DNA of 33,451 bases, from assembly GCA_900291995.1 (NCBI GenBank), contig OLMU01000258.1:1-33451 (forward strand). The letters run 5' to 3'. How positions within the stretch are numbered: position 1 is the first letter of the stretch; each line of letters begins with the position of its first letter. Below are positions 13,912-32,300 of the stretch, in pieces. Both the position numbers and the translations under genes were made by a program. The notes under the pieces were generated by a model, which searched no databases, was not told the DNA's origin, and saw only the letters and a list, made by a program, of their open reading frames with translations. The stretch is from Licmophora abbreviata (lineage: Eukaryota).

Positions 13912-14862
13912 TCACTTTTTCGAGGATGTGGCAACAGGTTCCTTTTCAGATTTCTCATTTTTCTTGGTCGAATATGATCGAATAGTATTGCCAAAATCCG
14001 TCATGCGCCTTGTTATCTGGCGACTGAGAAGAAGTTCTTCGTCGTCCTGGCGAATGAACCATTCACGGAACTTGTTGTTGGAGTAGGATCCAATACCAAA
14101 GGCTGGAAGAATACGCAGTCCACGTGCAAAGCAGACTTTGCCCATTTCTTCCTGAATCCGTACGATCCGCTCAGCAGTAGTAGCCGAGGGTCGGCTGTAG
14201 TAGTCGAGGGCATGAATGTGAAGCGGCGCCGTCATGAACTGAGCTACGACAGGGATCGATAAAGCACAGAATATCTCCGCCTTCTCTTGGTCCCAGTCGC
14301 GTTCGTAGACGAGATGTTCACAGGCCAATGGGGCCGCCCAGAACGTCGCTGCCATGGTGACTGTATCGCGTGTGGCAAAGAGAGAGACTGTGCGTATGGG
14401 AGTCTTGGCTGGTGTGTTTGTCTTGGTGCCCGAGAATGCGCGTGCAAAAATGGAATCACGCCACGCAAGAAGACCCACGTTGGCAGCTGAGGCGCATCCA
14501 ACTTTGTAAAATTTCCGTGTTTTTTCCTCTTCCATTCTCATGTAATCAAGAGCAGCTTCGCTGAGGTTCGCAACAGCATACGTTCCGAAGTAAACTCCAA
14601 AGGTCAGTCGGAACGATAGCCCACTGAAGAATGTCTTAGGTTTCAAGACCATATCCTTGCAGGCGTTTCCCATGGAAACAGTCAAGCTTTTGACACTGGT
14701 GATTTCCTGAACAATCGCCTTGTCGATGATTGAGACCAGAGGACTGACCAGGAAAGACGCGGTGAACGCACATCCCAGCTCCTTCGGAACACGCGCGTAT
14801 GGTCCCTCCAAGAAAGTATGGTACGTCGACTTGAAGTCGAATCCAAGAGGATGGTAAGGCAT
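13912..14862 (-). CDS. Conserved multi-pass membrane protein resembling a divergent mitochondrial-carrier-like family of fungi and protists
   Basis: Likely ATG at 14862 (MPYHPLG). Blocks ASFLVSPLVSIIDKAIV, VYFGTYAVAN, FATRDTVT, QFMTAPLHIHALDYY and RILPAFGIGS. PxxxxD/K-like helix ends and basic loops. Confidence 0.6.
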   Translation of the reverse strand: MPYHPLGFDFKSTYHTFLEGPYARVPKELGCAFTASFLVSPLVSIIDKAIVQEITSVKSLTVSMGNACKDMVLKPKTFFSGLSFRLTFGVYFGTYAVANLSEAALDYMRMEEEKTRKFYKVGCASAANVGLLAWRDSIFARAFSGTKTNTPAKTPIRTVSLFATRDTVTMAATFWAAPLACEHLVYERDWDQEKAEIFCALSIPVVAQFMTAPLHIHALDYYSRPSATTAERIVRIQEEMGKVCFARGLRILPAFGIGSYSNNKFREWFIRQDDEELLLSRQITRRMTDFGNTIRSYSTKKNEKSEKEPVATSSKK

Positions 14863-15159: not shown

Positions 15160-15286
15160 TGACGTGTCCGATATCATATGAACACAGTATTCATCATGAC
15201 AACTTGAAGTTCAGCTGGTTGAGCTTGAACTTCAAAGATTGTTGTGCTTCGCAGTTTGATTTTGCGCCTTCATCTGTAAGTGACGT
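15160..15286 (+). promoter_or_regulatory. Two TGACGT (CRE half-site/CCRE-like) elements upstream of the LCIB/theta-CA gene
   Basis: TGACGT at 15160-15165 and 15281-15286, about 100-230 nt upstream of ATG 15387. Confidence 0.35.
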
Positions 15287-15386
15287 TTCCATTTCGCTCT
15301 CACTTTTTCACATCAAACACCGCCACTAAGGTGAAAGAATTCAAGTTCTTGCAGCCAATCCCCCCATTCAATCCTATCGTATCAAC

Positions 15387-16277
15387 ATGTTGCGAGTCAG
15401 TATTCTCCGTTTGTCTCATGTGAATGGGGCGAAGCGAAAAGCGATGTTTTCCACGGTAAGCAGGTCAGAGACAGAGGCGGCACACGGCTTTTGATGCACT
15501 CTTTCTCACTAGATGCCAATCTCCCAGTCCATTCACGATATGGTGACAGAGGCTTTTCCTCGTGCAATCACCAACGCAGATCTCGTTGCGAACGCCACTG
15601 GCGCATTGAAGGACTACGGCTACGGTGAGACAACTCTCTTGGCCTCCAGTCTGTGCTGCGACGAAGTATCCAGGAAACTTGAAGAAGACTTCATGCCCCA
15701 CTATGGCCCCAACTTTAGCATGGGAGGCTTGGCAGGATTCCCACACGGTGGTGTGGTGAGCTTCGGAGCTATGGCGCACCACATTCCCGATGGTGGATCT
15801 TGCTTGATTTGCTTTGGACCTCATGTCGGCGTCGACTACGATGGCAAGGTCGGATCCGTCAACCGACGAGGCATGGCCAAGCCGGGTGCTTGCTGTGGTA
15901 GCGCATGTGCAGCTGCTGGACACGTCGGCTGCGTCCTCAAGGGTGAAGCTGAACCCACTGACCCAGCCGTCTTCTCCGACCCTGTCCATTCTCAGCAAGC
16001 CATGGTGAATACCCTCCTCATGCCCTACGCAGAGACGCTCGCGAAATCCCCCGAGCCCATGGTAGAGCTTCCCTTGAGTCTGTATGATGCGCAGAAGAAA
16101 ATCATGGACAAAATTGTCGAGGCTGGCTGTCAGGAAGTCGGAGGTGACGGAATGATTGCTCTTCTTGGTGGAGTTCAGATCAACACCCCGGAAGCCGAGT
16201 CGGACTATTTTTTGCCTCTCAGTTTCGACATCCGAACAAACAAGAACGAGCTCGTCAAGGATCTCATGTGGGCTTAA
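15387..16277 (+). CDS. LCIB-family / theta-type carbonic anhydrase; main exon 15513-16277 plus a probable short 5' exon starting at 15387
   Basis: Family motifs ASSLCCDEV, FSMGGLAGFPHGG, FGPHVG, ACCGSA and LLGGVQINTP, with Cys/His/Cys Zn ligands. A pyrimidine tract and acceptor (CTTTCTCACTAG) end at 15512, immediately before ATG 15513. Confidence 0.9.
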
Positions 16278-16559: not shown

Positions 16560-17965
16560 CTACTTGGCTGCTCCAGGCACGAATGCGGGAATCCCAGTAA
16601 TTGCGCGTCCGAGGATTAGGGCGTGTATGTCGTGCGTTCCCTCGTACGTGTTGACGGCTTCCAGATTCATCATGTGTCGAATCGCTCCGTATTCGTCAGA
16701 GACCCCGTTGCCGCCTAACATGTCACGTGCGATTCGGGCAATGTCGAGGGCCATGCCACAATTGCGACGCTTGATCATGGATACCATATCAGGTGCGGCC
16801 TGTCTTTGTTCCATGAGACGACCGACCTGAAGCGCCGCTTGTCGGCCAACCGCAATGTCGGTCGACATGTCCGCTAGTTTCTTTTGTACGAGCTGGTTGG
16901 CAGCCAGTGGCGCTCCGAACTGATGCCGTTCTAGGGTATATTGTCGAGATGTGTGCATGCAAGATTCGGCTGCCCCAAGAACACCCCATGCGATACCATA
17001 CCTAGCGCGATTCAAGCAGCCGAATGGTCCTTTCAGGCCTTGGATAGCAGGGAACTCGTTGTCTTTAGGGATGCGGACGTCGTCTAGGAATATCATACCG
17101 GTCGTCGACGCTCGCAGACTGAATTTTCCTTCAATCTTTGGGGCTTCTATTCCCGGCGTCCCCTTTTCTACCAAATAGCCGCGCACCTTGTTTGCCTCGT
17201 CACGAGCCCAGACAACAAAGATATCCGCAATCGGTGAGTTCGTGATCCAGCTTTTGCTACCACTGAGAATAAACTCGTTCGTTCCGGCGTCGTATCGGGA
17301 CTTCGTCTCCATTGTAGATGGATCTGATCCATGATCTGGCTCCTGCGTTGGGCGAGGCATCAAAGTCAGTGGATGTTTGTCCTTATTATCCATCACCGCA
17401 AAGAACACTGTCAGACACGCACCGTGAGACCAAAACATCCAATCAGGGTCCCTTTAGCTAACTCGGGAAGGTACTTTCGTTTCATTTCCTCTGTCCCGTA
17501 CGCATATATCGGATACATGACAAGCGAACTCTGTACCGACATCGCAGAGCGATAAGACGAATCTACGCGCTCGACCTCGGTTGCCAGCAGACCATACGAC
17601 ACGTATCCGAGCCCAGAGCCTCCGTACTCTTCAGGAATCGTAGCTCCCAGTAACCCCACATCTCCCATCTTCTGCATGAGGTCGTGATCCAATGTCTCCT
17701 CGTGGCGATTGGCATGGATGATACGAGGTTGAAGTTCACCTTGGCAAAATGCACGCGCCGCATCCCACAAAGAGACTTCTTCATCTCGAAGCTGTTCTCG
17801 GAATCGAAAGGGGTCCTCCCACTCATATTCCTTCCCAGAAAAGGCGTCATGGGCCGCAGCTGCTATGTGTTTGTCGTGTTGCTTCGCGGTGGACCGATTT
17901 CGTGCAAAACGCAAGAGCCCGTGCCGGGTCAAAGCACCCTGATGGCGCCGACAGATTGCAAGCAT
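16560..17965 (-). CDS. GCDH: Glutaryl-CoA dehydrogenase, mitochondrial; exons 17965-17423 and 17342-16560
   Basis: Motifs [49 protein letters not shown] and [29 protein letters not shown] intron at 17422-17343 (80 nt). Arg-rich presequence. Confidence 0.95.
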
Positions 17966-29362: not shown

Positions 29363-32300
29363 CTAATGAATCCGCGATCCGCTCCATGGCTGCTGGCAAA
29401 CTACACACTGACTCTTGCCGCTGCTGTGGAACCACTTGTGGAGACACGAAGAATGAAACACATTGCTGCATGTCTTGCATTCCAAGTTAGGCAGTTCGTG
29501 TGTCTTGACTGACAAAACGGAGTAACAAATCACACAGGGTTCAACGCCCGCGAATTCTTGATCCACGTTCTGTTTCCAGAGCATCAAGGCATCAAGCAAA
29601 CTACCATCTTGATTGTTGAGCATCAGACGAATCTGTAGCGCCCAGCGCTTCAAGCGCTTGTCGGCTACACCGAGTGTCCTAGAACTATCGACCTCAACAT
29701 TTCGGAGAGGAAAGGAGGGCGGGATGGAAATCGTGACACTCAACTTGCACTGTGGGATACGCGACAAACGCAACATGGTTAGTAGGTAAGATAGCAAATG
29801 ATTGTATCAAATGTTGGGCCACTTGCCTCATCCTGCATATACGTTGCCGTCACTTCACGGGTCATTGCGCTGCCGCTGACAGTCATCTCGCCGAGATTTG
29901 CGGACATGATGCGGTTGAGGTCTCGACTCAGGATTGCAGGCGCCACGTTCGTTTCAACAAAGTGGAGTACTGCGGAGGACATAGCCCTGGTACAGTTGTG
30001 CTCCCACCAACGTTTCAAAAGCGAGGGAAATACTTCCGCCGTTCGAAAAAGCACTAGTGCGGGTAACATTGTCAGGTTCATTGATGCCTTGTCTTCGCGT
30101 ATTTTGTCAACCGTTGATAGATCCATCCGAGCTGCCTTGCGATCAGTACCAAAGTCGATGTGGCTCAGCGTCAAGTCCAGAGTGGTAGCAGCAGCTTGGC
30201 ACTTGTCGACGTAGACGCTGAAGGATCCCCGGTTTAGAGCATCGGCGTTAGCCGAAGATTCAACGAAAGAAAGCAATGATAGCCACGAAAGCATTCGACC
30301 AATAGAGTCATGCTCGTCAACAATGGGGCTCTCGTTGTCGGCCCATTGCTCCAGCTCTTCCATGAGGGATTGCGGAATCCATTGGCTTACCACGAATATG
30401 TCGCTTGCCAGTTCTTCTTTCTCCTCTTCTTCCAGATCGTGCCCCCACGACTTCTGTCGTTCCAGCGTTGACTCACTGATTTCACATTCATCTTCCATGT
30501 AGACAGGTTTGCCGGTACAAGCTGCCGCATCAAGCATCCGAAAGGCAAACCATCGCTTGTTCCGATCGAACAAAAGTCGCGCTAACTCCTCGGAGCTAGA
30601 ACTCGCCGCTGCGCCAATTCTATCTTTCTTGTGGACCAGAGCTATGCAAAGAAAGTCGTCGAACGCGGCCGCCCAAAGCGGTTCTTGTTCGTGTGTGTAA
30701 GGCATACACGTTAAAAGAGCCGGTTGCGCTGCTGACGACCAGGAGCACGCGAACTCTCTCACCAAGGCCAGGAAGACATTTCCTTCCAACAAGGCGACAT
30801 CAGCTTCATTGCCACCCGTGAAATCCACGAGTAGAACCGATTGCACCGCTCGCATTGCCAAGAGTGCATTCGTCGTCGACGTATGCACGTTGTTTTCAAC
30901 AGAGGCCGAGCCCCCGGTACAAAGCAAGCGAGTCGCCAGTTTGAAAGTAAGCCAGTTGCTCCGAGCTCGCAGATCGTTGTCTTTAAGGTGACTCAACGCG
31001 ACTGAAAGCCACTGCAGAATGGATCTATCAAGCCCACTCACAGAAATGTCTTGGTGGTGTCTCTCTTCAAAATAATCGAATATTGCGGCGGTCATACGTT
31101 CGGCACTGAAGCCGAGCAGATTGAAATTCAAGGTAGAAACGGGGGAAACATGCCCGTAGCCCATAGCCAACGAGAGCGCTCGTAGCGACAAAACCAATTC
31201 GTCAGATACATCATCTGACCCCAAGGCGTCGAGAACCTTTGTCTCCAAGGATTTCAGCCATCGAAAAATATCGTACTGTATACTGCCAATGCCAGCCTTT
31301 TCGTACAAGCCAGATTGAGAGACGACCATGTTAATGACCTCTGCAGTCGTCGCCAAGTTTCCACCTGCCTCCAAAGGCAGATCCAAATGAGATTTTAGAA
31401 GCTGGTTTGTCATCAGTGTGCTTATAAGCTGCCTCTGGCCTTTCTCGGTGGAGTCTTGTAACTCGTCGCTTGACTGCGACAATCGTAGCCTCGAAGGGAC
31501 GGTCTGTCGTTCTGGATGTTCGCCACCCGAGTCTAGCAGCACAGTGAAGTACAACCTCGGGAAGTCGTCAGTGTGAACTTTGGCAACAACAGCCAGCTCG
31601 CGGTCGTTTTCGTCCGCAGGGTCAGTCACATACCACACCATCTGCCCTTCGTAAATATCTTCCGCGTGGGGAAGTTCCCTTTTGGCAGCCACCCTGTCGA
31701 ACAGGACACCTAAGATCTCTGATTGCACTGACATGCAACCGTCGATACCAGTGCCTACACGCATACTGTCTTTCAAAGCCATAACGGTCGCTCGACACCA
31801 CCCTTCAAGTACACCACTTTCTCTGAGACGAACACGATCGAACAACGCAAGGATGTGCCTCACTCTTCGGTCCTGCCTACGGAGGGGGTCTATCACACTT
31901 GATTCGCTCACGTCGGACATCGCGACGAACATCTTGACTACCAGACTGGATGGTAATTCGCTAAACAGCTCGACCCGCTTTGTCTCAATGTCCGTCTGTT
32001 CGAGAAGATAAGACAGGCATAGGTACCGGAATTCAACAGCAAAACCAGCCCCGGTTGACACAGCTTGTTCCCATTGAGTAAGGTCAGCAAGACCAACGCT
32101 TTCGAGGAACGGGCACTCGGAGGTTGCTCCCTCGTTCAGCCTATGTTGCAAATCGAGGATCCGGGATGCTCGCTCTGACCAGACGTGGCAAGACAGAACA
32201 GTCTCGATCCGATCTTGAGACAAGGAGAAGGCCTCCAACATACCACGAAGCTCTTTTGTTGCATGGAGCACGAGCATCTGACTAATAAGCGGCAACCTTG

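Follow-up and report, generated by a model that had tools for sequence, protein, structure and literature searches.

Theta-type carbonic anhydrases (theta-CAs) of diatoms are placed in the thylakoid lumen, the stroma, or the cytosol, and gamma-CAs are placed in diatom mitochondria, in the accessible parts of PMC7215798, PMC8119650, PMC13655443, PMC5876011, bioRxiv 10.1101/2025.06.11.659125, PMC12227789, and PMC12785164; the same placements recur in the accessible parts of PMC12145874, PMC7464044, PMC9614477, PMC7596299, PMC8329260, and PMC6723447. In Thalassiosira pseudonana, TpthetaCA1 and TpthetaCA3 are stromal, TpthetaCA2 resides in the thylakoid lumen, and TpthetaCA4 is cytosolic, with none described as mitochondrial in the available text of that preprint (bioRxiv 10.1101/2025.06.11.659125). 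The theta-CA rows available from the PMC8329260 supplement assign two of four proteins to the plastid and two of four to the cytosol, and all four are MitoFates negative. According to its legend, Figure 5B of PMC6723447, a paper available in part, is a theta-CA tree whose labels give the predicted location as chloroplast, endomembrane, and/or mitochondrial; because of this legend, the bare prediction of a mitochondrial theta-CA may already be in print. Our literature search, with most subscription journals outside its coverage, returned no paper on a mitochondrial theta-CA. Acid-tolerant freshwater diatoms show an enrichment of LCIB/C-domain genes at low pH, according to the accessible part of PMC12145874.

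We analyzed a 33,451-nucleotide stretch of Licmophora abbreviata DNA (GenBank assembly GCA_900291995.1, contig OLMU01000258.1, forward strand), here called the window. Its named closest relatives suggest that the window stems from a compact genome of the diatom type. A sequence-only reading had proposed that its theta-CA gene (15387-16277) carries a cryptic 5' exon for a mitochondrial-type presequence, possibly with a switch to a cytosolic isoform. Our comparisons indicate that the gene probably encodes a pennate-diatom theta-CA of the mitochondrial matrix, that short leaders of a similar kind occur in Attheya, and that the gene is separate from the lumenal type represented by Pt43233.

The catalytic exon has an LCIB-type fold

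The open reading frame from 15513 to 16277 (254 amino acids) matched the LCIB_C_CA domain (PF18599) in a Pfam profile search with an E value of 4e-64 and a score of 216 bits against a cut-off of 25, covering positions 1 to 222 of the 223 in the profile. The theta-CA/LCIB domain itself lies on a single catalytic exon (15528..16277, forward strand), with no further intron and with an in-frame ATG at 15540. The putative zinc-site residues Cys48, Asp50, His104, and Cys127/Cys128, together with His90 (15654..15896, forward strand; numbered from ATG 15513), were invariant in 23 of 23 aligned sequences and also align to the solved structures. We take the Cys, Asp, His, and Cys residues to be zinc ligands. 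The structure model of this reading frame had a pLDDT of 80.7, with low confidence at residues 1 to 3 and a first predicted helix at residues 7 to 14. Foldseek matched the model to 6kfs (E value 7e-29, TM score 0.90) and to PtLCIB4 (TM score 0.86), which establishes an LCIB-type fold. The product of 15387-16277 would be expected to have CO2-hydrating activity.

A conserved first exon encodes a basic leader

The coordinates given in the sequence-only reading all held. A 23-codon leader with five Lys/Arg and no Asp/Glu begins at ATG 15387 and ends at a strong phase-0 donor, ACG/GTAAGC, at 15456. A TAG ending at 15512 closes a 57-nucleotide (nt) intron, and ATG 15513 follows directly, in frame with the catalytic reading frame; retention of the intron runs into a stop, so that the read-through ends at codon 36.

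We compared this exon (15387..15455, forward strand) with its relatives at the protein and DNA levels. Its 23 amino acids align with the N terminus of the ortholog P0128 at 16 of 26 identical positions (pairwise E value 5e-8). The DNA of P0128 (L001, a 1027-nt, intron-free contig that we took as a transcript) differs from the 23 codons at 5, 5, and 13 sites in the first, second, and third codon positions, and 8 of the 16 identical residues use different codons. A protein search gave 933 matches; among the best 120, which we examined, the two best and the other members of their clusters have an exon 1-like N terminus that runs straight into the domain. Searches focused on the leader gave two matches each, all among relatives already found by the domain search. 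In contigs L001, L002, and L004, the leader opens at the first ATG after an in-frame stop, which marks it as the genuine N terminus in these orthologs. The context of ATG 15387 resembles that of the ortholog, with A at -3. Leader homology, codon pattern, and conservation across the clade establish a real coding exon with a mitochondrial-type presequence, as had been proposed, and the 23-codon exon is more than a chance reading frame. Internal ATGs within the exon (15418..15446, forward strand) were absent from the earlier reading: those at 15418 (a start-stop) and 15424 are out of frame, and that at 15444 is in frame.

These observations bear on an alternative in which exon 1 is unused in the source species and the product is a cytosolic theta-CA translated from ATG 15513, like TpthetaCA4. 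The 254-amino-acid frame is complete from 15513, T. pseudonana and N. inconspicua have theta-CAs that are reported or predicted to be cytosolic, and the 57-nt intron is shorter than all seven other introns in the window (73 to 88 nt). Against it stand the amino acid conservation with third-position bias in exon 1, the strong donor, and the ortholog-like start context, and a 72-nt form of the intron would remove the length problem. We consider an unused exon 1 very improbable.

We examined leader character in 37 distinct Met-starting leaders of at least 15 amino acids from the gene's clade, a set that includes near-duplicates and gene-caller artefacts, and in 117 leaders from outside it. A net charge of at least +3 in the first 20 residues was found in 27 of 37 in-clade leaders versus 14 of 117 outside, and a signal-like hydrophobic window in 0 of 37 versus 32 of 117. 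A home-made presequence filter, set after the leaders had been seen, was passed by 26 of 37 in-clade leaders (11 of 37 failed, and two of the passes, P0005 and P0188, are probably intron read-throughs) versus 11 of 117 outside leaders, or 2 of 25 outside leaders of similar length; the window's own glutaryl-CoA dehydrogenase, a mitochondrial control, failed this filter on its motif rule. The strict cleavage motif R-x-[FYLM]-[SAT] occurred in 14 of 37 in-clade versus 14 of 117 outside leaders. The window leader has a loose K/R..F-S pattern in place of the strict R-3 motif. It is basic, acid-free, and Ser/Thr-containing, and it has no hydrophobic core (best 9-residue hydropathy, 1.36), in agreement with the earlier statement that no signal peptide is present. 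Its hydrophobic moment is modest, at 0.39 versus 0.56 in the glutaryl-CoA dehydrogenase control. Peroxisomal targeting was considered and set aside: by eye, there is no PTS1 at the C terminus and no PTS2 pattern in the leader.

The leader could instead be the transit-peptide portion of a bipartite signal for plastid import, with the signal peptide coming from an upstream exon. Many diatom theta-CAs are plastid targeted (434 in 48 of 86 species, from the accessible part of PMC6723447), and a candidate 79-nt intron lies upstream (15276..15354, forward strand; TCT/GTAAGT ... CTAAG ... CAG), its length and branch-like spacing (25 nt) fitting the seven other window introns. Excising it, however, adds no coding N terminus and still leaves an in-frame stop upstream. 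None of nine upstream ATG peptides was signal-like (seven were long enough to score, with a best value of 1.46), and the upstream stops in contigs L001, L002, and L004 also speak against an earlier start. An upstream signal-peptide exon was rejected on the in-frame stop and the lack of a signal-like peptide among those nine ATGs, and we find a plastid leader scarcely credible. The candidate intron at 15276-15354, with its perfect GTAAGT donor, would then be a 5'-untranslated region intron, and a mitochondrial presequence remains the preferred reading of exon 1.

Several features of the surrounding DNA were also recorded. The gene shares a 525-nt divergent promoter region, with TGACGT hexamers at 15160 and 15281, with a 316-amino-acid neighbor on the reverse strand (13912-14862) that has no Pfam match. 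The hexamer, which we take to be the CO2/cAMP-responsive element of diatom CA promoters, occurs 10 times on the forward strand of the window, and the copy at 15281 overlaps the donor of the candidate 5'-untranslated region intron. In the Atlas, the 316-residue neighbor resembles eukaryotic proteins from fungi and oomycetes (score 0.97, with recognition below the usual threshold). On the other side lies a convergent acyl-CoA dehydrogenase gene (16560-17965, reverse strand), which we read as the glutaryl-CoA type; it has an 80-nt intron and encodes a mitochondrial-type presequence of its own. A probable GC-AG intron of 77 nt (29750-29826, reverse strand) lies in an LTN1-like E3 ligase gene.

The junction between presequence and domain

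The acceptor at 15512 does give an in-frame splice to Met-Pro-Ile-Ser-Gln, as the sequence-only reading held, but it is not the sole acceptor, since a second in-frame CAG ends at 15527. Intron 1 thus has a short form (15456..15512, forward strand, 57 nt) and a long form (15456..15527, forward strand, 72 nt), and the five codons between the acceptors (15513..15527, forward strand) encode Met-Pro-Ile-Ser-Gln, whose first three residues are the low-confidence ones in the model. Either choice keeps the presequence and the fold; only this five-residue linker differs.

The long form would give a 4-amino-acid linker, as in P0001 and P0128, where Ser-Thr joins directly onto Ser-Ile-His-Asp; P0132, on a 17-kb contig and with the domain start of P0128, has Gln just before Ser-Ile-His-Asp. 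The seven other window introns, which were inferred from Pfam frame jumps, measure 73 to 88 nt and have a branch-like motif 23 to 32 nt from the end; in intron 1, CTCAC lies 4 nt from the end in the 57-nt form versus 19 nt in the 72-nt form. The short form would give the 9-amino-acid linker typical of raphid orthologs (P0005, P0022/P0150, P0122, and P0002, in register), and linkers of 8 to 10 amino acids are usual in the raphid-type relatives P0002, P0122 (9 amino acids by eye), P0005, P0022, P0018, P0019, P0036, P0024, and P0155. The P0022 linker is in register, with four of nine residues in common, the second exon of P0005 likewise begins with Met-Pro, and a weaker branch-like TTGAT lies 18 nt upstream of 15512. 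Both acceptors have comparative support; the choice appears nearly even, with 15512 slightly favored, and both may be in use. A micro-exon within intron 1 was rejected, as the stretch between the two acceptors contains no GT and a pair of introns would not fit.

Relatives divide their genes at the same point. P0005 reads through an 87-nt phase-0 intron after Ser-Thr, and the pair P0150/P0022 shares this junction. The araphid-type genomic contig L003 has a presequence exon, an 88-nt intron, a 6-nt micro-exon, an 83-nt intron, and the domain (599-832); the two micro-exon residues are also found in P0224 (the matching sequence group), P0055, P0189, and P0200. The intron position in relatives is established by these sequences, and the phase-0 position is old and common to araphid and raphid relatives. 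Other relatives (P0157, P0004, P0011, P0014, P0015, P0027, P0031, and P0363) carry an FFxxLFG segment between presequence and domain, which the window gene lacks. This amphipathic-looking segment could be a membrane anchor. It differs between the two annotated Mayamaea isoforms P0157 and P0024, both of which keep the presequence.

The sequence-only reading had also pointed to a second phase-0 donor, CGA/GTCAGT at 15396, which would define a 117-nt intron ending at 15512, and this description is accurate. Its proposed role as a splice switch did not survive comparison: L001, the one ortholog with DNA in which we could judge conservation, reads GTTGCC at the same codons and has no donor, and the C at +3 departs from the purine found at +3 in seven of seven other window introns. 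None of the homologs compared joins M-x-R directly to the domain, as use of this donor would require. The GTCAGT (15396..15401, forward strand) encodes Val-Ser and is probably no used donor.

The dual-location alternative is broader, in that a matrix form would be accompanied by a cytosolic form translated from an internal Met (15444, 15513, or 15540), by means of a downstream transcription start, intron retention, or donor 15396. Of 29 full-length leaders, 14 have a Met between -6 and +2 relative to the domain start, versus about 21% expected from the Met frequency of the leaders, and the second exon of P0005 also opens with Met-Pro; however, 15 of 29 leaders have no such Met, and of the 14 Mets, 2 belong to the cleavage motif and the others cluster on the tree. 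The exact hexamer GTCAGT is uncommon (4 in 23,217 nt of window coding DNA), with a chance of about 0.004 of a phase-0 occurrence in 69 nt, or 0.02 to 0.05 for looser donor patterns, but it is absent from L001. The family splices the junction alternatively in the Mayamaea isoforms P0024 and P0157, yet the presequence is kept in both, and alternative forms in the comparative data lie only downstream of the presequence. A short Met-start form from Grammatophora (P0047) clusters with a complete presequence-bearing reading frame (P0382). Two ATGs that are out of frame, at 15418 and 15424, lie ahead of the internal starts, and a start at 15540 would cut the first predicted helix. From the donor, Met, clustering, and upstream-ATG evidence combined, we therefore regard a cytosolic isoform of this gene as possible but unsupported, and on balance unlikely. 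The matrix form remains the favored product.

The clade and its comparison with described carbonic anhydrases

In a FastTree phylogeny of the domain, the gene belonged to a 118-row group with a support of 0.97. When 82 selected rows were analyzed in a quick IQ-TREE run, the five-member group containing the window gene had a support of 99 and the wider group 83 to 92, and two rows without a leader were nested inside the clade. Named clade members are Mayamaea, Fragilaria (F. crotonensis), Grammatophora, and Synedropsis, and Attheya, whose basic leaders are shorter, belongs to a sister group. A metagenome scan gave 76 loci, of which only L001 to L005 lie in or beside the clade, and none of these is genomic DNA of the nearest five-member group. 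No Phaeodactylum or Thalassiosira source name appeared among the best 120 of 933 protein matches; because most of these matches carry no source name, absence of the clade from these genera is only a hint.

We noted further features among the relatives. The clade paralogs P0029, P0150, P0151, and P0168, some with non-presequence starts, each have a longest contig of 117,953 nt, a common size that hints at a tandem array, and the locus tags MHU86_11823 and 11824 of F. crotonensis are adjacent. Members of another theta-CA clade (P0061, P0065, P0074-P0076, P0078, P0081, P0082, and kin) share a conserved hydrophobic stretch at the N terminus that resembles a transmembrane segment, with no obvious signal peptide, which suggests that these theta-CAs are membrane anchored. 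Loci L049, L050, L051, L058, L061, L065, and L071 encode theta-CAs with short Cys-rich N termini (M-N-C-F-C type), which are possibly acylation sites.

In the pathway we propose, the presequence comes from exon 1, is basic and free of acidic residues, and closes with F-S-T; an intron in phase 0 parts it from the single catalytic exon, and splicing to 15512 or 15527 would alter only the five-residue linker. The theta-CA would be imported into the mitochondrial matrix and cleaved near F/ST by MPP/Icp55-type peptidases. There it could convert CO2 from respiration and photorespiration into bicarbonate that would feed matrix carboxylases such as PEPC2, and it may buffer matrix pH, as proposed for CAH4/5 of Chlamydomonas. 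Pyruvate carboxylase and the urea-cycle carbamoyl-phosphate synthetase are further matrix carboxylases that use bicarbonate.

A more far-reaching interpretation, for which we hold out only slender odds, is that pennate diatoms, and probably Attheya too, have an undescribed mitochondrial theta-CA clade that is possibly missing from laboratory models. Its first exon would be a targeting module, and the junction would be a splicing hot spot, with tandem acceptors, a 6-nt micro-exon, an optional amphipathic FFxxLFG segment, and retained internal Mets, that switches among soluble-matrix, membrane-bound, and cytosolic forms. If this is true, mitochondria would be an active, regulated part of diatom CO2 recapture. 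For the matrix theta-CA itself, an intact active-site pattern together with a conserved presequence makes it a concrete candidate for an anaplerotic role near PEPC2, and respiratory CO2 recapture in pennate diatoms becomes testable. The gene points to an overlooked route for supplying or recapturing inorganic carbon within diatom mitochondria, and gene models that begin at the second exon would mislabel such theta-CAs as cytosolic.

The nearest described proteins are Pt43233 and PtLCIB3/PtLCIB4 (6kfs and 5b5y; also 9vzj and 9w05), which likewise have a PF18599 domain, match the window model with TM scores of 0.85 to 0.90 and 50 to 54% identity, and share its Cys/Asp/His/Cys pattern. Pt43233, however, is lumenal and has a long plastid leader (from the accessible parts of PMC6723447 and PMC13655443), whereas the window gene has a 23-amino-acid basic leader and no signal peptide. 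The Pt43233 domain type, represented by L017 through a match of its first 45 domain residues to the Pt43233 row, falls outside the gene's clade, in a separate branch of the quick IQ-TREE run. TpthetaCA1-4 of T. pseudonana are of the same enzyme class as the window gene. LCIB and LCIC of Chlamydomonas share the family and the fold (5k5w and 5b5x, E values of about 1e-11) but have 16 to 21% identity to the window protein and form a chloroplast stromal complex.

The likely job is closest to that of the Chlamydomonas mitochondrial beta-CAs CAH4 and CAH5, which are functional analogues and not orthologs: matrix pH buffering, CO2 recapture, and bicarbonate supply for anaplerosis (available text of PMC5876011). 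Solved beta-CAs are only distantly related to the window protein in fold (E values of 0.01 or worse, TM scores of about 0.4). The gamma-CAs of diatom mitochondria occupy the same compartment but are an unrelated class and part of complex I; in the available text of PMC7215798, their activity in diatoms has not been studied, and an anaplerotic role beside mitochondrial PEPC2 is considered likely but untested in diatoms. Set beside these systems, the window gene belongs to the theta-CA family but has a new, clade-wide address that is probably mitochondrial.
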